From Kiritimatiellia bacterium (GTDB lineage Bacteria; Verrucomicrobiota; Kiritimatiellia; RFP12; UBA1067): 64,000 nt of DNA. Every line of letters begins with the position of its first letter. Positions within the stretch are counted from its first letter, which is position 1. The stretch spans positions 32,001 to 96,000 of the forward strand of contig JBMNFY010000017.1 in NCBI GenBank assembly GCA_050949565.1, in the 5' to 3' direction. Below the pieces are notes generated by a model that saw only the letters and a list, made by a program, of their open reading frames with translations, made no database searches and was not told where the DNA came from. The position numbers and the translations under genes were made by a program. This document shows, piece by piece, positions 1 to 11,987 of this stretch.

Positions 1-1250
1 GGCGCAAGCGTTGTGATGATCCGGCGCTTGAGCGTCTCGCCTTTTGCGACATAACCACCGGAGGCGCCCATCCAGATGCCGCCCGCGCCCAGATCCTCGA
101 TCGTGCAGTTTGTAATCCGGTTGGAGACGCAGCCATCGTTGAAGCGCAGCGCGTAGTTGCCCGTATGCGCGATCGTGCATGTGTCGAATGTGACGCGGTG
201 CGCGCCCTCGGCAGTCACGAGGCCGTCCGATCCGCTGGACGCCTGATGCTGCCAGCTTTCCGTAGGGCCATTTGCGGGAAGCCCCGGTGTTTGCGGAACA
301 TCGCTGTACGCGAATGTCAGATTGCGGAAAGCGATGTCATGCACGAACGCACCCTTGTCCGGGTCACCCTTGAACGCGACCAGTTGGCTCAGCTTGGCGC
401 TTGGCGCGATCACAACCGCCGTCGCGATGGTCTCACCCTCCAGCGGCCGATAGCGCACGCGGCCCGCCTTGGCGTCATAAAACCACTCGCCCGGCGCATC
501 GAACGCGCTCCGCACGTTCTCGAAGGCGACAAGCGTCTCGCGCTCGTTCCATTTCACCCAGCCGTGCCAATCTCGCGGCGACCAGGTCTCGACCGTCATC
601 GTGGCGGGGTCGAAGCGGCGCAGGATGCGGCGCGCCGTGCTCCACTTATGCACCACGTACATCTGCGCGTACGGCAACTCGTCAGCCGGAATCTTGCCGA
701 GTGCGGCGGCGGACTCGTTCGTCAGCGTAGCACGCTCGACATACGAGACCTTACCCTCCGCGTTCGTCACCACGGTGATACTCGGTTTCACGATATTGAA
801 ATAACTCGCCGTCCCCTGACCGCCATTTGGCAGGCGCGCACGGTCGGCGCGACGCCCGTTGACCCACAGCTGTTCGAAATAGGCGGGTTTGCCGTCAGGC
901 GCTACTGGGATTGGCGCGGACCATGTGCCGTCCGCCTCGGCGGTCCATCCTTTGATCACGCTGCCGCCGGAGATCGTCGCGCCTTCACCCTCGCCCACCC
1001 AAGTGACCGGTGCCTGCGGTGTGCCGGAATCGGCGGGCATGAACGTAAGCGTCTCTGCAAGTGCGTAGATGCCGGGCTTCACGATCACCGTCCAAGCCTC
1101 TTTGTTGCCCTTCGCCTTCGACGCACGAATCATCTCCAGCGCGGCCTGCGGCGTCAGGCCGTCTGGAGCGACCACCACCTCACCCGCCTGAACGAGTGCC
1201 GCTGAAATAAAACCCAAGAAAACACCCGCAAAACAAACTCTGCTCCCCAT
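1..1250 (-). CDS. Secreted right-handed parallel beta-helix protein (GH141-like/pectin-lyase fold), runs off the left window edge
   Basis: Hand translation from ATG at 1250 (GGAGG RBS upstream): MGSRVCFAGVFLGFISAALVQA signal peptide, then 'VKPGIYALAETLTFMPADSGTPQAPVTWVG...ISGG...FEQLWVNGRRADRARLPN', typical of this family. Absent from the ORF track because no stop lies inside the window. Confidence 0.8.
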   Translation of the reverse strand, partial: MGSRVCFAGVFLGFISAALVQAGEVVVAPDGLTPQAALEMIRASKAKGNKEAWTVIVKPGIYALAETLTFMPADSGTPQAPVTWVGEGEGATISGGSVIKGWTAEADGTWSAPIPVAPDGKPAYFEQLWVNGRRADRARLPNGGQGTASYFNIVKPSITVVTNAEGKVSYVERATLTNESAAALGKIPADELPYAQMYVVHKWSTARRILRRFDPATMTVETWSPRDWHGWVKWNERETLVAFENVRSAFDAPGEWFYDAKAGRVRYRPLEGETIATAVVIAPSAKLSQLVAFKGDPDKGAFVHDIAFRNLTFAYSDVPQTPGLPANGPTESWQHQASSGSDGLVTAEGAHRVTFDTCTIAHTGNYALRFNDGCVSNRITNCTIEDLGAGGIWMGASGGYVAKGETLKRRIITTLA

Positions 1251-1418
1251 TTCAAGCCTCCCATGAACGTTGCAACTGACCGCATGATAGCAAAATGCGG
1301 CGGTGGGGTAAACGCACTTCTGAACAATAAAGAGGCAGGTGTTTGGAACGGCAGGTGTTTGGAATAGGCACATGCGGAACTATCGTAATTAATCGTGCGC
1401 TGATTTTGTTTCGTGAAT

Positions 1419-1693
1419 GGTTGCCGAGCTGCCCGTGCCCACACCTTTCAAGGTGTGGGCACGGGCATGGCTCGGACATGGGCCGCGACGGCGGTGCGTT
1501 TTTTGGCGCATTGATCGAGACGAGCCTTTAAAACCGGTGGTGTCGGCGGGGTTGCCCGGTACGCGCGGGGTGCGTTCTGGCATACCTGGATGAAAAGGTT
1601 GATATGCCCACACCTTTCAAGGTGTGGGCACGGGCGTGGTTCGGACATGGGCCGCGACGGCGGTGCGTTTTTTGGCGCATTGATCGAGACGGG
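1419..1693. repeat. 169-bp-period repeat array A (about 1.6 units, 2 palindromes)
   Basis: Palindrome TGCCCACACCTTTCAAGGTGTGGGCA starts at 1436 and 1605 (169 bp apart). The first copy extends to a perfect 18-bp arm inverted repeat (1430-1467). Sequence downstream of both copies is nearly identical. Confidence 0.95.
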
Positions 1694-1828
1694 GTTTTCG
1701 TACTAAACGCCTGTCCCTTGGCAGTACCGATCGACGAGCGAGCCCTCAATCTGATTACCCCTTGATCAGGCGCCAAGACGAGGGACGTTTTTTCATGACG
1801 TGCCACTCTTGTTTACGGTGTCACGCGA

Positions 1829-2395
1829 TTACAAGTCCGCGTGCCGCGCGATCAGTTGCAAGAACGTCTCCGAGAAAAAACTGCGGTCGGGGTGGAGCGA
1901 CCACACCGCGTCTTTGTCGACGATCATTTTCCGCTCGGAAAGCTTGTTCAGATGCCGCGCCAATGCTTGCCGAGAAATGTGTGTCTCCTGCGCGAGAACG
2001 GGGGTAGCGAGGTTGCCCTTTGTAAGAAGACAATATAGCACGGTCAACCGTCGCGGATGCGTGTAGGCGGTCAGGTTGTGGATGATTCGGTCAGTTGTCC
2101 ATTTCTCCGTGAGGATCGCCCGACTGACAACCGCCAAGATGTGCGCTGCCGCGGGCACGAGCGGATCCGGCGAGGAAAAATAATGAACCCAGCGGCTCTG
2201 CCGTCTCGCGCTAATGAGTCCCCGCGCCTGGAGCGCCCGCAAGCACAGGCTGGCATGATCGTCGGGAACGGCGGCCTGCTTGGCGATCTCGCTGACTGAC
2301 TGGCCCGGCTGGCGCAACACGACCTCAAGGCAGCGGAGTCTGCGCTCATTGGCCAAGACCCGGCATGTGCGCCAAATGGTTGGATGGTAGCTCAT
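1829..2395 (-). CDS. Tandem (double) ArsR-like winged helix-turn-helix DNA-binding protein
   Basis: 188 aa with two ArsR-like units: 'RVLANERRLRCL...SVSEIAKQAAV...ASLCLRALQARGLISARRQSRWVHY' and 'AYTHPRRLTVL...TPVLAQETHISRQALARHLNKLSERKMI'. Confidence 0.85.
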   Translation of the reverse strand: MSYHPTIWRTCRVLANERRLRCLEVVLRQPGQSVSEIAKQAAVPDDHASLCLRALQARGLISARRQSRWVHYFSSPDPLVPAAAHILAVVSRAILTEKWTTDRIIHNLTAYTHPRRLTVLYCLLTKGNLATPVLAQETHISRQALARHLNKLSERKMIVDKDAVWSLHPDRSFFSETFLQLIARHADL

Positions 2396-2463
2396 CAGTG
2401 TTCCCCCGTTTCTGGATCAGCCCGCGCACACCGTGGTGGTGCTCACGCCTGTGCTTCGCTGAC

Positions 2464-2515
2464 GCCCACACCTTTCGATGCGCGGAAGTTAACACGGCGC
2501 ACGGTGACAAGTCAA
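2464..2515 (-). promoter_or_regulatory. Putative sigma70 promoter of the wHTH gene overlapping a degenerate copy of the array palindrome
   Basis: Minus strand TTGACT (2515-2510), 18 nt, then TAACTT (2491-2486) preceded by TG (extended -10). GCCCACACCTTTCGATGCGCGG at 2464-2485 matches the left arm of the array palindrome and covers the expected start site. Confidence 0.5.
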
Positions 2516-2616
2516 CAGATTATCGAAGTTAGACAAAACAGCTTTTTGAGCAAAACAGCTTTTTGAGCGGTGTGTTTCACTGGTGTTTGGTACACAAAAG
2601 AAACGCTTTCATAAAG

Positions 2617-3171
2617 GGTTGCCGAGCTGCCTGCGCCCACACCTTTCAAGGTGTGGGCACGGGCATGGTTCGGGCATGGGTCGCGACGGCGGTGCGTTTG
2701 TTGGCGCGGTGATCGAGACGGGCCTTTAAAACCGGCGGTATCGGCGTGGTTGCCCGATGCGCGCGAGGTGCGTTTTAGCATGCTCGGCTGAAGAGGCTGA
2801 CATGCCCACACCTTCCAAGGTGTGGGCACGGGCATGGTTCGGGCATAGATCGCGACGGCAGTGCGTTTGTTGGCGCGGTGATCGAGACGGGCCTTTAAAA
2901 CCGGCGGTATCGGCGTGGTTGACCGATGCGCGCGGGGTGCGTTTTAGCATGCTCGGCTGAAGAGGCTGACATGCCCACACCTTTCCAGGTGTGGGCACCG
3001 GCATGGTTCGGGCATAGGTCGCGACGGCGGTGCGTTTGTTGACGCGTTGATCGAGACGAGCCTTTAAAACCGGCGGTATCGGCGTGGTTGTCCGATGCGC
3101 GCGGGGTGCGTTTTAGCATGCTCGGCTGAAGGGGCTGATATGCCCACACCTTCCAAGGTGTGGGCACGGGC
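2617..3171. repeat. 169-bp-period repeat array B (3 full units plus a final palindrome)
   Basis: Palindrome starts at 2634, 2803, 2972 and 3141, each 169 bp apart. Intervening sequences are highly similar to each other and to array A. Both arrays begin with GGTTGCCGAGCTGCC. Confidence 0.95.
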
Positions 3172-3520
3172 GAGGACGTTCGCCCAGACGGCGTATCGCG
3201 CCGCCGCTTCTGAACGCCGGACATCGAACGCCGAACGCTGAAGTGAAACAAACAGTCCAGTTTTGTTTTCACCGCGACGAAGTGAAACAAATCCTTGCCT
3301 AAATCGAATTAGGTCGCGAGCTCCGTCCGTGTTAAGAAAAGAAAGAAAATCGGCAGACGCACATTCGAGCTGTTAGCCCGCCGCCCGCGTTTCGCACGGG
3401 AATGTAAATGAGGATAACTTTGATGTAAGTTATAGGCGCACACCCGAGCTTGAAAGAGTGAAGGTTAACCCCTATACTCTGGTGTGATTGATCGTCACAG
3501 CGTACTAAAGGAGGCTCCAC

Positions 3521-5179
3521 ATGACTTCTCCACGGATTGAACGCACGCTTCACACACTTGCTTACTGTGTGGCTTTGGCAACAGCCGCGTCTGTCTCAGG
3601 CGCGGAAAGAACATGGACCGGTGCCGGGGCGGACGCCCGTTGGACCACGGCGGCGAACTGGGCGGAAGGCGAAGTCGCAGCCTCTGACACGCTGCGGTTT
3701 GGCGGCACCGTGCAGCCCGTCACGACCAATGATTTCGCTACCGACACAGCGTTCTCAGGTCTCACCTTTCTGCCTGACGCGGTTGGCTTTACGCTCGCGG
3801 GCAACCGCATCACGCTTAACGGTGACCTCGTCAACCAATCGTCCGTCTCACAGACCGTCTCACTGCCCTTGCTGATCACGGCGACGGCGGACCGCACACT
3901 TAACGCTGCAAATGGTCCGATGACGTTGACTGACTCGCTGAATTATGACACCGGCACCACGTCCCGCTCCTACAAGAAGACCGGTTCCTATGAACTGCTC
4001 TTCACCGGGTCAACCCAGGTGACCAACCTCTACAGTCGTTTCGCGCTCAATGAAGGCACGCTGCGTTTCGCGCCGGGATCGATGTTTCATCTGGTCAACT
4101 TCAGCAATGATCGCAATGTCTTCCGCATCGGCGATGTCGCCAACAAACAATCCGCCATCATCGTTGAGCCGGGCGCAGATGTGGCACTCGGCGGGCTCTC
4201 CCTACAGATGACCTCAGTACCGGGAGGTACCGGAAGTTTCGACCTGCTCGTCAACGGCGGTCGCTTTGAACTCACCGGCACGGACAACACCTTCGGCGAT
4301 ATGACCGGCAACCGTACCGCAATTGTGATCAACAACGGCGGCATCTTCACAAACGGCACGGAAAACGCCTGGGTACATGCCGGCACACGCTGCCCCTTCA
4401 CCCTTGAACTCGACGGCGGGACCGTCTGGTTGCAGCGGCTCTCACTGGGACGTGAATCCGATGCGGGCGACCGTCAGTTAGGGCGCGCCGACATCGACAT
4501 CCGCCGCGGCCTCTTTGTCGTCAACAATGCCTTCCACTGGATGAGCACAAGTTGGACGCTCCGCACCAACATCGTCACACTCGGTAACGGCACGCTGGGC
4601 AGCGCAACGCTCAGTTCGGTCAGCATGTCGCGCGCAACCACATCCGGTACTGCGATTCTCAATCTGAACGGCGGCGTTTTGGAGTGCCGCAACGGCTCTG
4701 GCAACTTCCTGAGTGGCTTGAACCAGGTCAACATGATGGCGGGCGGCGTGATCATTGACACATCGAACAACGCTGTGAATATCACGGAACCGATCATGCG
4801 TGATCCTTCGCTCAGCCTAGACGTGAGGGATGGCGGCCTGACCAAACGCGGCGCCGGTTCTCTGACCTTTTCCGGGCCGACCAATGAGTTCAATGGTCCT
4901 CTGCGCGTCGAGGATGGTTCGCTGCGCATTTCGCCCGGCATGCTTTCGGACCTCGAAGAGATCTATCTCGCCCCCGGCAGAACCTTGAGCTTCCGTGGTA
5001 GCCACCGCCAGAATCTGGCGCCGCAGCGCCTCTGTCTAGGCGACGCCGTGACGACCAGCCGACTAGATCTAGACGTCTCGGTCGACGATCTGACCTGTGA
5101 CACGATCCACATCCCGAGTCGGCGGCTACATCGGCAAGATCAACCTGCACCTGAAGCAGCGCGGCCCCACCGACCTTGA
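3521..5179 (+). CDS. N-terminal part of a giant secreted protein with autotransporter-associated beta-strand repeats (frameshift near 5117-5120)
   Basis: GGAGG RBS, signal peptide, 'TWTGAGADARWTTAANW' and 'GGLTKRGAGSLTFSG' repeats. Reading continues in the next frame as 'GGYIGKINL'. Confidence 0.85.
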   Translation: MTSPRIERTLHTLAYCVALATAASVSGAERTWTGAGADARWTTAANWAEGEVAASDTLRFGGTVQPVTTNDFATDTAFSGLTFLPDAVGFTLAGNRITLNGDLVNQSSVSQTVSLPLLITATADRTLNAANGPMTLTDSLNYDTGTTSRSYKKTGSYELLFTGSTQVTNLYSRFALNEGTLRFAPGSMFHLVNFSNDRNVFRIGDVANKQSAIIVEPGADVALGGLSLQMTSVPGGTGSFDLLVNGGRFELTGTDNTFGDMTGNRTAIVINNGGIFTNGTENAWVHAGTRCPFTLELDGGTVWLQRLSLGRESDAGDRQLGRADIDIRRGLFVVNNAFHWMSTSWTLRTNIVTLGNGTLGSATLSSVSMSRATTSGTAILNLNGGVLECRNGSGNFLSGLNQVNMMAGGVIIDTSNNAVNITEPIMRDPSLSLDVRDGGLTKRGAGSLTFSGPTNEFNGPLRVEDGSLRISPGMLSDLEEIYLAPGRTLSFRGSHRQNLAPQRLCLGDAVTTSRLDLDVSVDDLTCDTIHIPSRRLHRQDQPAPEAARPHRP

Positions 5180-8100
5180 CTTCAACCTGCCCGGCGATTA
5201 TGTGCTCTTCACCTACGCGAGCGAGCCGCCGGACATCACCCTTTTGACCCACGCCAACCGCGCGTTCGGCACGACCTCCTCTTTCATCGTGGACCGTGCC
5301 GCAAAAACGGTAACGCTACGCCGCCTGATGGTGAATACCACGGAAACTACGTGGAGTAACCCCGCCGGTGGCGCTTGGGAGACCGCAGACAACTGGACCA
5401 CACCACCGATCAACGCGCCCGAAACGCGCGCCCGGTTCTGGGACGCCATCACCGCCCCCGCCACTGTTACGCTCAACACCGATACGCGTATCGGCGGCTT
5501 CTCTTTCAACAACAGCCAACCCTACACACTTTCCGGCAACGGTACGCTGACTATCGGCGACCAGTTCGGCACTGGCTATCTAGTCAGCGATGTCGGCAGC
5601 CATGCTGTCGCGCTGGACATTGAGTTGGCCGCCCCTATCAACATGGGCGCACCGGCCTCGCATACGCTGACGCTTTCCGGTGTCCTTTCCGGCTCAGGCG
5701 GCATCATTAAAGGCAATGCCGGCACTTTGCATCTTACCGCAGCAAACACCTTCTCCGGCGGCGTGCGCATTGACGGCGGTACCCTGACGATCCCCTCGCT
5801 GGATGTTTTGGGATCCGGCCCGCTGACCCTCGCGGGCGGCACCGCCCTTATGACTGGCGGCGGCAGCGCGACATACGCCAACCCGCTCTACGTGCAGGCC
5901 AACGGCGTCCTTGATCTGGGCAGCACAGACCTGACATTGACCGGCCCCATAGATTGGACCGGTGCAGGCATCCTCACCAAACAGGGCGAAGGCGAACTGA
6001 TCTTGGCCGGCAGCGCGAATGAAAACAACGGCGCCTACCGCTTCAATTTCCGTCAGGGTGTTACGCGCCTCGCCGCCGGTACAGCGTACACCCTGCGCGG
6101 CAACGACCGCGATGTCCTGCAGACCACCTACAGCGCTGTCGGCCAGACATCCAAACTGGTCATCGAACCCGGCGCAGTGCTCACCGCCGGCGGCATGCGC
6201 CTCATGGCCGGATCGTACGCCGGCACATCGACCGTGCATGTGGCGGGCGGGCGGCTCGACCTGCTTGATGCCGAAAGCACGATCGTCAATGCCACCGGCG
6301 GCCGCGCCGATCTCCTGATCGACAACGGCGGTTCGCTCTATGCAGCCAAAGGCTGGTTCAATCTCGGCGTCAACGGGCTTGGCACCCTGACGGTCACCAA
6401 CGGCAGCGTTTCGCTCAGCCTCCTGTCGATAGCCGGATATGGCGATACCATCAGCACCGGCAGCCGCAAAGGCAGCGCCGCAGTGACTGTCGGACCGGGC
6501 GGCGTTTTTGAGGTCCGTGACTACTTCAACTGGATCAATGACGACCAGAACAATCTTGCAAGTCTGCGACTCGATGGCGGCCGGTTGATCCTCCCCGTCA
6601 CCGCGCGCGCCGTTGGCAGCATCGGCACCGCAAGCGTCGTCCTCAACGGTGGTGTTTTCGACTGTGCCGGCTTGCCGACCTTAACCACCGTCAACGCCCA
6701 GATCGCACCCTCGCTGGATGACTATCTCTTCGGCGTCGATGAGCTATTCCTCGGCGCAGACGGCATCACGATTGATACCCGTCTCCACAATGTCACCATC
6801 ACTCAGCCGCTCGTCATGGAGAGCGGCAGCACTGTAGCCGCTGGTTTCACCAAGACCGGTGCCGGCAGCTTGACACTCGCAGGTGACCACGCGTTCAACG
6901 CACCGGTCACCGTTCAGGCCGGTACGCTTGCGCTCACTTCGCTGCCCAACAACGCGGTGCAGGTCGCCAGCGGTGCCACGCTTAACCCCAGTTTCAACAG
7001 CGTGCGGACCGATGCCGTCACAACCGCAACGTTTGGGGACAATACCGTTCTGGCCGTCGATCTCGCTGAAGCCAACAGCAGCGACCGCCTCGCGGTTGCC
7101 GGTACCCTCGCACTGGGCTCGCGCCTTACAATCTGGGTGAACGGCGACACGCTACCGGGCACCTTTACGCTCTTCACCTACGGCACACTCACCGGCAGTG
7201 CCAATGCTCTGCGTATCGGCAATCCGGATGGCGACTTCACCTATCAGTTCACCGACACCGGCAGCGCCATCACGTTGACCGTCGCGGCCAATCCCAATAG
7301 TGTGGCATGGGCGAACGATGCTGACGGCGTCTGGAGCGCAAACGCAAACTGGACACCGCAAACCGTGCCCAATGGCGTGGGACACTCGGCCCGCTTTGAC
7401 CTCAGCTTCGCGCAACCGCGCACGGTCACGCTTGACCTGCCGGTTACGCTGAGCGCCCTGCTGTTTGATGCGCCGATCGCCCCGCAGGTGACCGGCACGG
7501 CGTCGCTCAGCCTCAATCATAGCGCCATGCCTTCGTCAATCGAAGTGGCGTCGGGCCACCCGACGCTTGCCGTGCCGGTCGCCGTACCGGCCGAAACGAC
7601 GGCGTGGATCGCGCCCGACACCTCGCTGACTTTGGCCAAAAACCTGAGCGGCACAGGTGCGCTCAGTGTCCAAGGCGGCGGTGCGCTGATGCTGATGGCG
7701 ACGAACACGATAGCCAGTACCCGCGTCGCAGATGCTACGCTGCAACTCGGTCCCGACGCTTCGTTGGAAGCTCCGCTGACGCTCGACAACGCCACGCTCA
7801 CCACCTCAGCCGATCACACCAGCGCTGCCGCCATCACGAGCGGCACGTATGGCGCGACCGTTACACCGCTTGACAGCACCACGCTGACCCTGTCCGGCCC
7901 CGTCAGCGGTACAGGCGGATTGGTCAAGACCGGTTCCAGCACGCTGGCCCTGACCGGGCCGCTCACCTATCAGGGCACAACCGTCTCCAGCGGCGGCACG
8001 CTCGCCCTCGCCACGCCGCCGCCCGCCGATTTGCGCCTCGGCGCGGGTACCTTTGTCCATGCCGGCGCGGCGGCGTCACTGCCCGGCTATCTGCTCAATA

Positions 8101-11100
8101 CAGAATCAAACGGCACGGCGGCTGTCTTTGCCAATACGGCCGACGTGACCGTGACCGGCCGAGTCCAAGCCGTTGCCGGTGGGTTCGTCAAACAGGGCAC
8201 AGGTACGCTGGCCTTCACCTATCCCGGCGAACAGACGTTATGCGTCGCAACGCAAACCGCCCTGCAAGATACGCTACTCAATATCGGCCCGAACGGTGAC
8301 GGTCCAACAGCCGGATTCAATCCGTTCACCGTTTCGGAAGGTACCGTCGTGTTGGGGGCTGAAGGTCAGGTCAACACCTTTAGCGGCAGCATCAGCGTCG
8401 GTCACTTTTCGACGGCTGATGCGGGTGCCGAAACCGCCGCGCACTTGAGAATCGAAGGCGGCACCACGACCGTCGCCGGTCATATTGCCGTGGGCCGGGG
8501 CAACGGCAACACGGTCACGGCCCCTACCCCGCTCGTTTCCACCTTGACCATCGATGGCGGTACGGTCGCCGCCGTCGGCTTTGCCATCGGACACAACGGC
8601 GGCAACACGGTCGGGTTTAACGCACGTCCCGCTGTCATCGTCAATGGCGGCGACATCTCACTCACCCGCATCAACATCGCGGAGCATCTCGGCAGCGACT
8701 GCACACTGACGCTGAATGACGGCACGATCACGCTGGCAGAAAACATTCAGGTTGGTCACCAGACGTCATTTGGCGGTGGCGGCACAGCGCTCATCACCGT
8801 AAACGGCGGCGAACTCGTGGCGTCCAACGAGATCAACCTCGGCATAACTCCGTCGGCTACCGGCACGCTGCATGTGGCCGGCGGACTGGTCTCCGCGCGC
8901 AACATCGTCGTTGGCGAAGGATGCGGCCGCATCCTGCTCGATGGCGGCACGCTGCACCTTTGGATGGGACCGATGAACGCTCCGCAAGATGTACAGATCA
9001 TGGCAGGCGGCGCGCGCATTGAGGTTCGTTCGGGCCGCTTCACCATCGCTCGTCCCCTGTTGGCCGGCGAGGCCAACGACGGCGGCCTCGTCAAGATCGG
9101 AGCCGGCATGCTGGCGCTCGACAGTTCTGAGGACCACACCTTCACAGGTCCGGTCACGGTAGAGGAAGGCATCCTCGCCTTCCGCAATGAGGCAGGGGCG
9201 CCTCTGCCAGCGGGCACGACACTGACCGTGTCCCCTGGTGCAAGCCTCTATCTGACGTCCGAAGACATCAGGAACGACCGCGTCATGACAGTCGCCAACG
9301 CCACGCTCGGTGCGGCCGAGCCGGCAGTTGACGCCACCCTTGCGGTTTGGTGCGGCGCAAACAACACCTGCGATCAACTCGCCGTCACCGGCAACCTCAC
9401 ACTCGGCCAGGTCGCCGTCTTGCTCTATCAGCGCGGCTCGCTGGATCCCGCGCTTTACGCCGGCACCTACCCGATTCTCTCTTATGCGGGCACGGACCCG
9501 GACCTGACAGGGCTTTCGGTCGCCAACCCGATCGCCTCGCGCACCTATGCCTTCTCGCTCGACACCGTCAACAAGCGCGTGCTCCTCACCGTCACCACGC
9601 AGCCGGGCCTCGGCGAAGCGATCTGGACGGCTGACAACGACGGTCTCTGGTCGCAGGGCCCGAATTGGCAGAACGGCACCGCACCGATCGCCATCGATAC
9701 GGCGGCGTTCTTTGCCAACGTGCTGTCGGAAGCGCGTACCGTCACGGTCGATACGCCGGCCACGCTGGGCGGCCTGGTTTTCGACGCCACCAACCGCTAC
9801 ACCGTTTCCGGCGGCGAGACTCTGACGCTCTCCGGCAGTGCTCCCCAGATGACCCTGATGCGCGGCGATCATGAGGTGTCCGCGCCGCTCGCGGTCGCCG
9901 GTGCCGCCGCCGTCTCGCTGGCACCCAACGGCAACACGCTCACCATTGCCGGATCGGTGACGGGCGATTCAGCCGCCCTCTCGCTCGATACGGCAGGTAC
10001 CTTGCAGGTCACAAACTGCGTGATCGACACCGCCCTGCTGGTCAATGCCGGCACAATGCGGCTGGAGGAAAACGCCGACATCAACGGCATCGTACGCGTC
10101 AATGACGGCGAAGTCCTCGCAACCGGTAATGCCACGCTCGACGGTGCCGTCGAACTTCCGCCCGGCAATCGCAGCCTGCGCGCCAACAGCGGCGCGACCC
10201 TGACGGTCAACGGCACGGTAGTCGGCGTAGGCACCCTCGTCAAGGATGGCGGTGGCGGCACGCTGGAACTCACGGCGGCCAACACCCACGCGGGAGGAAC
10301 CCGCGTCTCAAACGGCACACTCGCTCTGCGCGGAAACGGCACTCCGGGCCGTGGCGATCTGACGATGGCCGGCGGGCTGCTCGCCACGCTTGGCAGCGCG
10401 CCTGTCGCGTTCGACACGGCAATCGGCTTCGTTAACAACACTACCGTGGACACCACCGCGCCGCTCACCACCGGCGGCGCGCTCGCCATGCCCGACCCGC
10501 GCGCGCTGACGAAGCGCGGAACCAACGTCTGGTCGATCGGCGGCACCCTGTTCGGCTCACATGCCAGCTATCGCTTCTATCTGCGTGATGGTACTGTGCG
10601 CTTTGCGCCCGGCAGCCGATTCACGATGGACACGCCCGGCCTAAACCTGCGCAACCAATTCGACGCCACCAGTTCGTATGAGGGTAGCGCTCTGGGACTG
10701 ATCATCGAGCCGGACGCCGAGGTCACGTTCGGTGGATTGGGCGTGCAGTTCAACACCACGGCACCCGCCGGCACCTTCGACATGGTCATGAACGGCGGAC
10801 GCCTGACGCTGACCGGCACCAATCCGTTGGGGTTCGGCGATGTTGCAAACATGGCAATTTCCGTTGTCTGCAACGATGGCGAATTCGTGACCCTCCGTGA
10901 TGACGCATGGTGCGACATCGGTACGCGCAGTCCGGTCGATTGGACGCTGAACGGCGGACTCGTCTCGCTGGGCCGTCCAGCTTTCGGACGCATGAACGAC
11001 TCCGGTGCTGGCCGTTTCTACGGGCGCGTCAACTTGACCATCCACGGCGGCACATTCGAGGCGCGTGAATTCTTCTCGTGGAAGAGCACCGATTACGCCT

Positions 11101-11987
11101 ACATGACGAACATCGTCATGCTGGGCAACGGCACGCCACTACAAGGCCGTTTCAGCATCCCGGCCACTAAACGATATCACAGCGGCGGCCGCGTCTTCCT
11201 GAACCTGAACGGCGGCGTGCTTGAAACGCGAGGGCTCTGCTCAGCGGTCGCGAACCTCAATGGCTCCTCGGACGATTATCTGTACGGTGTCAACGAGCTT
11301 ACCGTGCTGACCGGCGGCGCGGTGATCGACACGCTGACCAATAGCGTGGCGATCCGCCAAACGTTCACGGCAGGAGCCGAAGGTGACGGCGGCGTGACCA
11401 AGCTGGGCAGCGGCACGCTTACGCTGGTCGAAGATGTCGCGCTCACCGGACGCGTCCACGTTGCCGAGGGCACGCTCGACGCAGCATTTACAACGACACC
11501 CGATCTGGCTGTCGGTGCGACCGGTGTGCTTGACCTCGGGCAAAACGTCGGCGCCGCGCGCTTTACGCATGTCACGGGCACCGGCACGGTCACCAACGGC
11601 AACTTCACCGTCGCCGGGTCGCTGAGCGCTGGCGACGCGCCGGGAGAAATCGGTGTCTTCCATGCCGAAACGTTGGCTTTTGAAAACGGCGTGACGCTGT
11701 ACCTCGACTGGTCCGAGGCCGCCAACGATCTCTTCGCGGTCAGCGGAACGCTCACCGGCGCATCCGGCGGCACCATCGACTTTGGCCGCGAGGAAGGCGA
11801 TGCGATCCCGGTACCGATGACGACCGTGATCGGCACGTACGGCAATTTCAACGGCGGCTTCCGCGGCTGGAAAGTGCGCAACGCCGGTCTGCCGCCGCGT
11901 GTGGGCCTCTCTGCGCGCATCACGGCGGAGGACGGCGTGGTGACGCTATCCATCGCCAATAGCGGCCTGATTATGTTGTTGCGGTAA
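5097..11987 (+). CDS. C-terminal part of the same giant beta-helix/adhesin-like protein (about 2820 aa when joined)
   Basis: Many 'GGLxKxGxGTLxLxxxNTxSGGxRxxxGTL' and 'WxxxxxGxWxxxxNW' repeats. Ends in SGLIMLLR with no beta-barrel translocator. Confidence 0.88.
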   Translation: MTRSTSRVGGYIGKINLHLKQRGPTDLDFNLPGDYVLFTYASEPPDITLLTHANRAFGTTSSFIVDRAAKTVTLRRLMVNTTETTWSNPAGGAWETADNWTTPPINAPETRARFWDAITAPATVTLNTDTRIGGFSFNNSQPYTLSGNGTLTIGDQFGTGYLVSDVGSHAVALDIELAAPINMGAPASHTLTLSGVLSGSGGIIKGNAGTLHLTAANTFSGGVRIDGGTLTIPSLDVLGSGPLTLAGGTALMTGGGSATYANPLYVQANGVLDLGSTDLTLTGPIDWTGAGILTKQGEGELILAGSANENNGAYRFNFRQGVTRLAAGTAYTLRGNDRDVLQTTYSAVGQTSKLVIEPGAVLTAGGMRLMAGSYAGTSTVHVAGGRLDLLDAESTIVNATGGRADLLIDNGGSLYAAKGWFNLGVNGLGTLTVTNGSVSLSLLSIAGYGDTISTGSRKGSAAVTVGPGGVFEVRDYFNWINDDQNNLASLRLDGGRLILPVTARAVGSIGTASVVLNGGVFDCAGLPTLTTVNAQIAPSLDDYLFGVDELFLGADGITIDTRLHNVTITQPLVMESGSTVAAGFTKTGAGSLTLAGDHAFNAPVTVQAGTLALTSLPNNAVQVASGATLNPSFNSVRTDAVTTATFGDNTVLAVDLAEANSSDRLAVAGTLALGSRLTIWVNGDTLPGTFTLFTYGTLTGSANALRIGNPDGDFTYQFTDTGSAITLTVAANPNSVAWANDADGVWSANANWTPQTVPNGVGHSARFDLSFAQPRTVTLDLPVTLSALLFDAPIAPQVTGTASLSLNHSAMPSSIEVASGHPTLAVPVAVPAETTAWIAPDTSLTLAKNLSGTGALSVQGGGALMLMATNTIASTRVADATLQLGPDASLEAPLTLDNATLTTSADHTSAAAITSGTYGATVTPLDSTTLTLSGPVSGTGGLVKTGSSTLALTGPLTYQGTTVSSGGTLALATPPPADLRLGAGTFVHAGAAASLPGYLLNTESNGTAAVFANTADVTVTGRVQAVAGGFVKQGTGTLAFTYPGEQTLCVATQTALQDTLLNIGPNGDGPTAGFNPFTVSEGTVVLGAEGQVNTFSGSISVGHFSTADAGAETAAHLRIEGGTTTVAGHIAVGRGNGNTVTAPTPLVSTLTIDGGTVAAVGFAIGHNGGNTVGFNARPAVIVNGGDISLTRINIAEHLGSDCTLTLNDGTITLAENIQVGHQTSFGGGGTALITVNGGELVASNEINLGITPSATGTLHVAGGLVSARNIVVGEGCGRILLDGGTLHLWMGPMNAPQDVQIMAGGARIEVRSGRFTIARPLLAGEANDGGLVKIGAGMLALDSSEDHTFTGPVTVEEGILAFRNEAGAPLPAGTTLTVSPGASLYLTSEDIRNDRVMTVANATLGAAEPAVDATLAVWCGANNTCDQLAVTGNLTLGQVAVLLYQRGSLDPALYAGTYPILSYAGTDPDLTGLSVANPIASRTYAFSLDTVNKRVLLTVTTQPGLGEAIWTADNDGLWSQGPNWQNGTAPIAIDTAAFFANVLSEARTVTVDTPATLGGLVFDATNRYTVSGGETLTLSGSAPQMTLMRGDHEVSAPLAVAGAAAVSLAPNGNTLTIAGSVTGDSAALSLDTAGTLQVTNCVIDTALLVNAGTMRLEENADINGIVRVNDGEVLATGNATLDGAVELPPGNRSLRANSGATLTVNGTVVGVGTLVKDGGGGTLELTAANTHAGGTRVSNGTLALRGNGTPGRGDLTMAGGLLATLGSAPVAFDTAIGFVNNTTVDTTAPLTTGGALAMPDPRALTKRGTNVWSIGGTLFGSHASYRFYLRDGTVRFAPGSRFTMDTPGLNLRNQFDATSSYEGSALGLIIEPDAEVTFGGLGVQFNTTAPAGTFDMVMNGGRLTLTGTNPLGFGDVANMAISVVCNDGEFVTLRDDAWCDIGTRSPVDWTLNGGLVSLGRPAFGRMNDSGAGRFYGRVNLTIHGGTFEAREFFSWKSTDYAYMTNIVMLGNGTPLQGRFSIPATKRYHSGGRVFLNLNGGVLETRGLCSAVANLNGSSDDYLYGVNELTVLTGGAVIDTLTNSVAIRQTFTAGAEGDGGVTKLGSGTLTLVEDVALTGRVHVAEGTLDAAFTTTPDLAVGATGVLDLGQNVGAARFTHVTGTGTVTNGNFTVAGSLSAGDAPGEIGVFHAETLAFENGVTLYLDWSEAANDLFAVSGTLTGASGGTIDFGREEGDAIPVPMTTVIGTYGNFNGGFRGWKVRNAGLPPRVGLSARITAEDGVVTLSIANSGLIMLLR

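Follow-up and report, generated by a model that had tools for sequence, protein, structure and literature searches.

This study concerns a gene and its flanking repeats in a stretch of 64,000 nucleotides (nt) from a Kiritimatiellia bacterium, hereafter the window (C17:32001-96000 of a 4.66-Mb assembly, genome handle G000). The gene, on the minus strand at 1829-2395, encodes a 188-amino-acid (aa) protein composed of two ArsR/SmtB-like winged-helix units (approximately residues 5-95 and 103-188; recognised by open reading frame (ORF), Pfam and NF033788), and is bracketed by two arrays of a long palindrome, the left array downstream of the gene and the right array upstream. The 24-nt pattern GCCCACACCTTNCNAGGTGTGGGC matches the plus strand with no mismatches at 1437, 1606, 2635, 2804, 2973 and 3142 and occurs nowhere else in the window; the strand-matches total 12, because each copy is palindromic and also matches the minus strand. 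Written as halves, the palindrome is GCCCACACCTT-NC-N-AGGTGTGGGC, which has exactly six copies in the window, and 100 dinucleotide-preserving shuffles of the window gave no match to GCCCACACCTTNCNAGGTGTGGGC. The palindromes measure 24-26 base pairs (bp), with a spacing of exactly 169 bp within each array and 1029 bp across the gene. An earlier interpretation made from the letters alone (the sequence-only reading) had described six palindromes 169 bp apart in two same-orientation arrays, flanking one gene of two ArsR-like winged helix-turn-helix (wHTH) domains; all six were recovered in place with no mismatch, and the repeat and domain searches agree with this arrangement.

The right array (2634-3171, plus strand, by tandem-repeat and pattern searches) comprises 3.2 units with palindromes at 2634, 2803, 2972 and 3141, and Tandem Repeats Finder assigns to 2635-3171 a period of 169 and 3.2 copies with 94% matches and no indels. 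The left array (1436-1690, plus strand, by repeat search) comprises 1.5 units of 169 bp, the segment 1409-1698 being a same-orientation direct copy of 2607-2896 in the right array at 87% identity. The opening palindrome of either array is longer than the rest, as detected by inverted-repeat and pattern searches: palindrome 1, the distal downstream copy (1430-1467), has arms of 18 nt (1430-1447/1450-1467) that are 100% complementary, and palindrome 3, the first of the upstream array (2628-2665), has extended arms (2628-2645/2648-2665) that are 89% complementary. Of the downstream copies, palindrome 2 (1605-1630, repeat and pattern searches) lies closest to the gene's 3' end, with 199 nt between it and the stop codon. 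A repeat search additionally revealed a degenerate seventh copy at 2463-2485, in which a single half-site, GCCCACACCTTTC, is kept 68-90 nt 5' of the ATG. Roughly midway through each full unit lies the motif CCTTTAAAA (1525-1533, 2723-2731, 2892-2900 and 3061-3069), at distances of about 81 bp from one adjacent palindrome centre and 88 bp from the other. The TTTAAAA tract within this motif had been pointed out in the sequence-only reading, and its conservation is stronger than claimed there: sequence reading and alignment of 16 units, from six loci of this genome and one relative, showed the motif to be invariant in 16/16. A CRISPR array was considered and rejected, as it had been before, given that the inter-palindrome segments are 94% alike within the array and homologous between loci rather than unique spacers.

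Both halves of the protein are matched by the Pfam models HTH_20, HTH_5 and MarR_2 (PF12840, 29.9 bits, cut-off 27; PF01022, 23.0 bits, cut-off 22; PF12802, 38.4 bits, cut-off 27), and NF033788 scores 70.1 bits against a cut-off of 55, in two stretches. An hhalign comparison shows that one half is a homolog of the other (probability 96.9%, E 2e-10, 15% identity over 73 columns), and the best relatives in the Protein Data Bank are NolR (E 3e-9) and SmtB (E 2e-8). Across the family, two stretches are invariant, HPTxWRTCRxLAN and LTAFTHPRRL, one at the start of either unit, and the cysteines C11 and C22 are nearly so. A prediction of the complex of two protein copies scored 0.18 (mark 0.42), a value that speaks neither for nor against pairing of the chains. 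By sequence reading, the leader of the gene is normal, with a GGGGGA box.

A word-indexed search returned 219 relatives at E<=1e-3, nearly all of 185-205 aa, whose only names are 'ArsR family', 'IclR family', 'HTH domain-containing' and 'predicted transcriptional regulator', and an exhaustive profile search among 1.84 billion representatives gave 308 clusters at E<=1e-30. According to database records, the relatives come from metagenome-assembled genomes of Kiritimatiellia, Lentisphaerae and Verrucomicrobia, and one hit (L104) is a record of the cultured Pontiella desulfatans. When 201 genomes were sampled evenly across the phylum, 19 proved to encode the family; each of the 19 has 1-7 matches, and all belong to the class of the window. 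A conserved neighbour is lacking, the commonest neighbouring family appearing in 6 of 80 loci, and the gene travels alone. The system had been proposed to be undescribed; consistent with this, the titles and abstract openings returned by a literature search that included six exact site sequences held nothing on the family or its sites.

We analyzed the palindromes beside homologous genes in the 80 best homologous loci with 3-kb flanks, setting the ATG by a rule of our own that agrees with the N-termini (MxYHPT...) of independently called database proteins. With the window sequence not assumed, a perfect 8+8 palindrome recurred in 32 of the 80 loci, almost all of the form CACAC(C/T)T...A(G/A)GTGTG. 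A site was defined as the 18-bp arrangement CAYAC-N8-GTRTG with at most one pentamer departure and at least 7 of 9 symmetric pairs, the upstream zone as the 150 nt before the ATG and the stop zone as -70 to +150, and the mirror arrangement GTRTG-N8-CAYAC served as control. By this rule, 60 of the 80 loci have an upstream site, with starts clustering at -20 to -23, 39 have a site at the stop, clustering at +8 to +25, and 38 have both, while the mirror arrangement was absent near the genes of all 80 loci. The far flanks, more than 500 nt from the gene, held 15 sites in 325,937 nt (0.0069 per 150 nt), and a stricter rule left 41 upstream sites, 23 downstream sites and 20 loci with both, with no mirror match in 449,637 nt. 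These comparisons support the conclusion that the protein and the palindrome belong together. The sequence-only reading had proposed to look for arrays in the flanks of homologs; palindromes are indeed there, but most loci have a single site on each side, and three or more sites occur at 10 of the 80.

Among the 57 loci whose site starts less than 60 nt from the ATG, a TTGAC-like box lies 5-16 nt before the core in 28 and a TAnnnT box at most 12 nt before it in 17. Since these promoter boxes stand just 5' of the site, the site would cover the -10 region or the transcription start, where repressors classically bind. Furthermore, in most lineages the site is palindromic to its centre (TTTGCAAA, CTCCGGAG and TTCATGAA), and such a self-complementary centre is more in keeping with a two-fold protein on duplex DNA than with the loop of an RNA hairpin. 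The stop-side copy is often extended, and its perfect arms reach 16, 22, 23 and 26 nt in loci L036, L058, L066 and L054; the outer portions vary from lineage to lineage, and the stop-side copies are not followed by a T-run. In loci L036, L041 and L052, the upstream sites are of a CTCC-GGAG type whose right arm reads GGAGGTG, a perfect Shine-Dalgarno sequence placed some 8-14 nt from the ATG, and whose left arm is complementary to it, and a site of this kind, if transcribed, would also sequester the ribosome-binding site.

Genomes with several family members provide an independent view of the pairing between protein and site. The present genome encodes two paralogs of the window protein, one 86% identical (C17:684880) and one 40% identical (C16:94354). 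The sites flanking the window gene are of the GCC-CACACCTT type only and those flanking the 86% paralog of the TTC-CACACCTT type only, three of them directly upstream; the 40% paralog is accompanied by the palindrome GGGTCACATATTCGAATATGTGACCC, with two copies upstream and two downstream out of 12 genome-wide. Both recognition helices of the window protein and the 86% paralog differ at their start (DDH/ENQ and SRQALA/SWQALT). Likewise, in the complete, single-contig 6.1-Mb genome G234, each of four paralogs is bracketed by a different palindrome (..CACACTTTGCAAAGTGTG.., ..CACACCTTGCAAGGTGTG.., ..CACAGTTTATAAACTGTG.. and ..CACACTTCATGAAGTGTG..), with 3, 5, 9 and 7 perfect copies genome-wide, four copies of the CACAGTTTATAAACTGTG variant following the stop at intervals of about 135 bp. 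A separate regulator would need a specificity for every paralog, and these private variants are therefore explained most economically by self-recognition. A covariation table of proteins against sites shows site classes following protein clades; for example, where one clade has CACTTC in place of CACAC, its first wing reads GVHI rather than SRWV, and a paralog with a CACAG site has RQL for RHL. Each of these changes stands for only one or two events and is not separable from shared descent. Five hybrid palindromes (C6:159436, C7:153212, C7:156584, C8:214739 and C17:684796) combine a CACATATT half, as in the sites of the third paralog, with a AAGGTGTG half, as in those of the second, with a regular site 123-168 bp away in each case. 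No site is closer to the start of the 86% paralog than one of these five, and such hybrids may be read by mixed paralog pairs or may be weakened sites.

The palindrome is also dispersed beyond the genes of the family. The core CACACCTT-NN-AAGGTGTG, with up to two substitutions, occurs 36 times in the genome (reversed control, 1); two isolated two-mismatch matches look like chance, and the remaining 34 sites, of the two variants GCC-CACAC... and TTC-CACAC..., fall at 13 loci, always in groups of 2-6. Their spacings are 109, 119, 122-124, 145, 154 and 166-172 bp, and in genome G045, which has 36 sites of the TTTGCAAA variant, including 13 doublets, the two sites of a doublet lie 77-191 bp apart. 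The idea that the sites are phased on one face of the DNA is not upheld by these spacings, which share no single phase. The spacers of the G045 doublets are A/T-rich and mostly unrelated, with four pairs sharing a similar stretch of more than 40 nt, and those of the TTC-type doublets in the present genome are A/T-rich as well; G045 appears, by identical coordinates, to be the same genome as handle G187, and would hence have five paralogs. Copy number varies widely: the TTTGCAAA variant was counted 2, 3, 7, 11 and 36 times in five genomes (controls, 0), and certain genomes have hardly any sites apart from those flanking the gene itself (three sites in G042, two in G044).

Arrays vary between and within lineages. 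Elsewhere in the family they evolved independently, in the form of a 265-bp unit in eight copies (L103), a 48-bp unit in three (L051), a unit of about 92 bp in three (L099) and one of about 135 bp in four (L134). At L103:1-3600 (Chthoniobacterales), two gene copies with 93-96% DNA identity lie 2.9 kb apart, and the gap between them is filled by eight homologous units of about 265 bp, each with a palindrome and a weakened TTGAC box. Two further species-level genomes of the genus share the window's arrangement of four upstream and two downstream copies (4+2; G004:C47 and G002:C140; also L028). By contrast, the orthologous spacer in G002, with flanking sequence 97-98% identical, lacks the four-copy array found at C17:835k, and at two doublet loci of the present genome G002 is without exactly one period (109 and 119 bp) and has one site at each; these differences of exact periods imply that arrays grow and shrink by whole units. 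The array-bearing intergenic regions are among the variable parts of these genomes, and the nearest genome, the comparison for selection on the arrays, is 95-99% identical everywhere. In the spacer with the four-copy array (L025:4200-4750; C17:834.4-834.9k) there are, in addition, several further families of short repeats, which number dozens of copies in the genus.

Taking together the anatomy of the locus, the pairing of gene and site throughout the family, the private variants of the paralogs and the changes in copy number, we consider it probable that the 188-aa protein is a self-regulating, sequence-specific DNA binder with its own operator, which has been amplified locally and behaves in part like a repeat of the REP (repetitive extragenic palindromic) type; binding, repression and the role of the arrays we infer from sequence comparison. 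The protein, built from an internally duplicated ArsR-type winged-helix unit, would bind duplex DNA at a cognate site consisting of the 18-bp core CACAC-N8-GTGTG and 3-6 symmetric flanking bases. In the basic module, the site would lie between a TTGAC-like or TAnnnT box and the ATG, and the bound protein would block its own promoter (autorepression). The second, often extended, site past the stop may serve as a roadblock, insulator or looping partner, halting transcription that reads in or out, or pairing with the first site across about 600 bp. In the genus of the window, the promoter-proximal site would have decayed to a half-site, and the 169-bp unit would have been tandemly duplicated to four copies upstream and two downstream, with copies of the unit spreading to other intergenic regions. 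Our best guess is that the arrays load many protein molecules, either as a cooperative nucleoprotein stretch or loading zone or as a titration sink that buffers free protein, with the invariant A/T tract providing a flexible point between adjacent bound proteins.

ArsR-type repressors bind 12-2-12 inverted repeats and autoregulate, inverted-repeat operators being textbook material, and the present family resembles ArsR/SmtB proteins (SmtB, CadC, NolR, HlyU and BigR) in its winged-helix sequence, with scores above curated cut-offs in both halves, and in an inverted-repeat site that overlaps the regulator's own promoter. Unlike the ArsR/SmtB homodimer of approximately 100-aa subunits, two homologous units are joined here in one chain; there is no cargo operon, a second site follows the stop, and the sites are arrayed, dispersed and different for each paralog. 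For the sensing of metals or thiols, by which members of that family are released from DNA, C11 and C22 are candidates with a putative role. LacI, GalR and DeoR act through two or more palindromic operators placed tens to hundreds of bp apart around one promoter; those regulators belong to other protein families, whereas here the operators would bracket the regulator's coding sequence and the spacers are themselves repeated DNA.

Several observations weigh against a simple operator. No site by our rule was found in 19 of the 80 loci, including the close relatives L032, L033, L035 and L037 (53-61% identity). In the window itself, the promoter side of the gene has the half-site at -68 to -90 and then arrays from -239, and as the nearest perfect palindrome is thus 239 nt 5' of the ATG, simple promoter occlusion is inapplicable to the window gene. 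The sequence-only reading had suggested that the fused pair could act as a single-chain dimer. The recognition helices of the two units differ from each other (xASLCLRALQ and xPALxRHLxKL), and a perfect palindrome read by such a protein favours either the binding of two chains to each site or a protein that reads the site chiefly with one of its units. At the dispersed loci, no shared function was found by Pfam among 47 flanking ORFs at 12 other loci of the genome (11 with palindromes and that of the third paralog), 48 ORFs at 16 loci of G045/G041 or 30 ORFs at 11 loci of G234; the neighbours of the 11 palindrome loci include LamG-domain proteins, an Xre-type HTH protein, a PIN toxin, UvrD, PGK, a T2SS protein and an integron-cassette-type protein with an IS4 transposase. 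Of the nine G045 doublets with assignable neighbours, four lie between convergent genes, which is unexpected for operators, with three between tandem and two between divergent genes. Finally, a perfect palindrome of up to about 30 bp is identical between dispersed copies at unrelated loci, and whole 169-bp units are common to at least six loci of the genome at 69-81% identity, both of which point to DNA copying rather than independent evolution of operators.

Copies between convergent genes, identity over about 30 bp and the sharing of whole units are habits of REP elements, and we therefore retain a REP-like system with a non-catalytic partner as the main rival, while judging it rather unlikely. 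REP/REPIN elements comprise a RAYT transposase gene flanked by its own palindromes, which are also scattered as singlets, doublets and clusters, with separate families for separate gene copies. By this account, the hairpin repeats would be copied by another enzyme and the winged-helix gene would be their cognate binder, selfish or domesticated; the protein may mark, silence or stabilise the repeats, and the arrays would be repeat clusters rather than regulatory devices. The resemblance extends to the palindrome on both sides of the gene with a private variant for each paralog, to the occurrence of copies singly, in pairs and in clusters between genes of whatever orientation, to the stop-side copies, long perfect palindromes with arms of up to 26 nt and lineage-variable outer parts, to the presence of whole units at at least five loci other than the window, and to the four-copy array at C17:835k that the G002 spacer lacks. 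However, a comparison of this array with the G002 spacer did not reveal a clean insertion with a target-site signature, and the flanked gene encodes a winged-helix protein in which the Pfam and NF models detected no Y1/HUH or other nuclease domain (no PF01797 match). The Y1_Tnp genes of the genome (seven PF01797 matches, five over the cut-off) are far from all 36 palindrome positions, copies number in the tens rather than the hundreds, and the G045 doublets, with their mostly unrelated spacers, look like conserved sites and not recent copies.

A chromosome-organising or centromere-like system, which we regard as improbable, would have the protein load onto the clusters and bridge or loop the DNA, with CCTTTAAAA as a mid-loop bend. 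In ParB-parS, ParR-parC and TubR-tubC systems, clusters of sites surround the gene of the binder, which autoregulates through the same sites, and TubR is itself a winged-helix protein; here too the clusters adjoin the gene of the presumed binder. The invariant A/T tract midway between palindromes and the A/T-rich spacers of the doublets also speak for this reading. Nevertheless, no partner NTPase of the ParA, ParM or TubZ type, whether ATPase or GTPase, lies beside the gene in the window, no neighbour is conserved in the 80 loci, and the loci are chromosomal and multiple. The palindromes, 109-172 bp apart in this genome, differ from closely packed centromere iterons, their spacing is not constant (77-191 bp), and several paralogs with private sites are unneeded for a single segregation system.

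The sequence-only reading had also raised transcription of the 169-bp units as repeated structured small RNAs, the palindrome forming an RNA hairpin, for which we see very little probability. The palindrome would fold as a strong hairpin, and in four units a weak stem and then a T-run follow it. RNA-library contigs overlap the gene itself in four metatranscriptome runs, which belong to four studies and were all made from digesters or sludge (X1, 1607-2331; X2, 1668-2316; X3, 1639-1881 and 1980-2344; X4, parts), and the array units are touched only by short contigs of one run (2754-2831 and 3094-3172); these contigs carry no information on strand, ends, levels or absence, such that the thin cover of the arrays is no sign of silence, and the end of the X1 contig at 1607, in palindrome 2, is not a transcript end, as contigs end at repeats. 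RNAalifold on 16 units, however, gave a covariation term of only -0.65 kcal/mol, which is not meaningful covariation, and its consensus pairs mostly join the two flanking palindromes. An Rfam search of positions 1-6000 brought up nothing beyond two microRNA models at chance level (22-26 bits, where the cut-offs are 80-108), with no match to the units at E<=1. Moreover, the self-complementary centre in most lineages leaves no loop, and the outer pentamers are conserved in sequence beyond mere pairing. Least credible of all, generic terminators or REP elements unrelated to the protein would accommodate the dispersed copies in many unrelated intergenic regions (the 34 sites at 13 loci bear out the genome-wide occurrence foreseen in the sequence-only reading as a refutation, though not the lack of relation to the gene) but leave unexplained the -20 to -23 position in distant homologs, the private variants and the empty mirror control, and are contradicted by the family-wide association and by stop-side copies that no T-run follows.

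A self-regulating binder with an amplified operator thus remains our preferred explanation. What is new is the family-wide tandem ArsR-like fusion, the pair of sites that brackets the gene, the private variants of the paralogs and the recurrent multiplication of the site. We also entertain, tentatively, a broader reading in which Kiritimatiellia and their relatives hold an unrecognised, non-catalytic partnership of protein and repeat, resembling REP/RAYT without the transposase, where a private bracketing palindrome is copied, both into arrays and to other chromosomal places, and diversifies together with its protein. Each paralog in such a partnership could keep its own protein-DNA code, and the elements could act as protein-bound boundary or insulator marks.

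The surroundings of the arrays contain further features of their own. The genes flanking the locus in the window encode a GH141-like beta-helix protein and a PATR-repeat protein. In the intergenic regions beside the arrays, Tandem Repeats Finder identified perfect short tandem duplications at 2534-2568 and 1334-1364 (CAAAACAGCTTTTTGAG x2 and GGCAGGTGTTTGGAAC x2), which may be sites of other regulators. A 66-nt element at 3372-3437 lies just 5' of the predicted promoter (3450-3478) of the PATR-repeat gene and recurs 16 more times in the genome with an identity of 83-98%; 12 of these copies are full-length (83-93%). Numerous distinct RNA-library contigs from four runs include it, each time between unrelated flanking sequences. 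It has no Rfam match and could be a shared leader or small RNA; one further copy, at C17:478535-478601, likewise lies about 225 nt from a palindrome array. Further 3' of the right array, 3521-11987 encodes two very large secreted-type PATR-repeat proteins of 552 and 2296 aa in overlapping frame, with an apparent break between the two ORFs at 5097-5179.

To our knowledge, almost no transcription factors have been characterised in these phyla. The family described here is not rare, and it brings with it a predicted binding site and a natural series of specificities, comprising at least a dozen variants, each with its own protein, and several protein/variant pairs inside single genomes; given these paired variants, the recognition code of the duplicated ArsR fold is directly testable. 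The wider question is how a plain DNA binder and its operator come to acquire the look of a mobile repeat, with a bracketed gene, doublets, arrays and changes in copy number. If the sites between convergent genes are bound in vivo, they would constitute a new example of protein-marked intergenic boundaries in bacteria.

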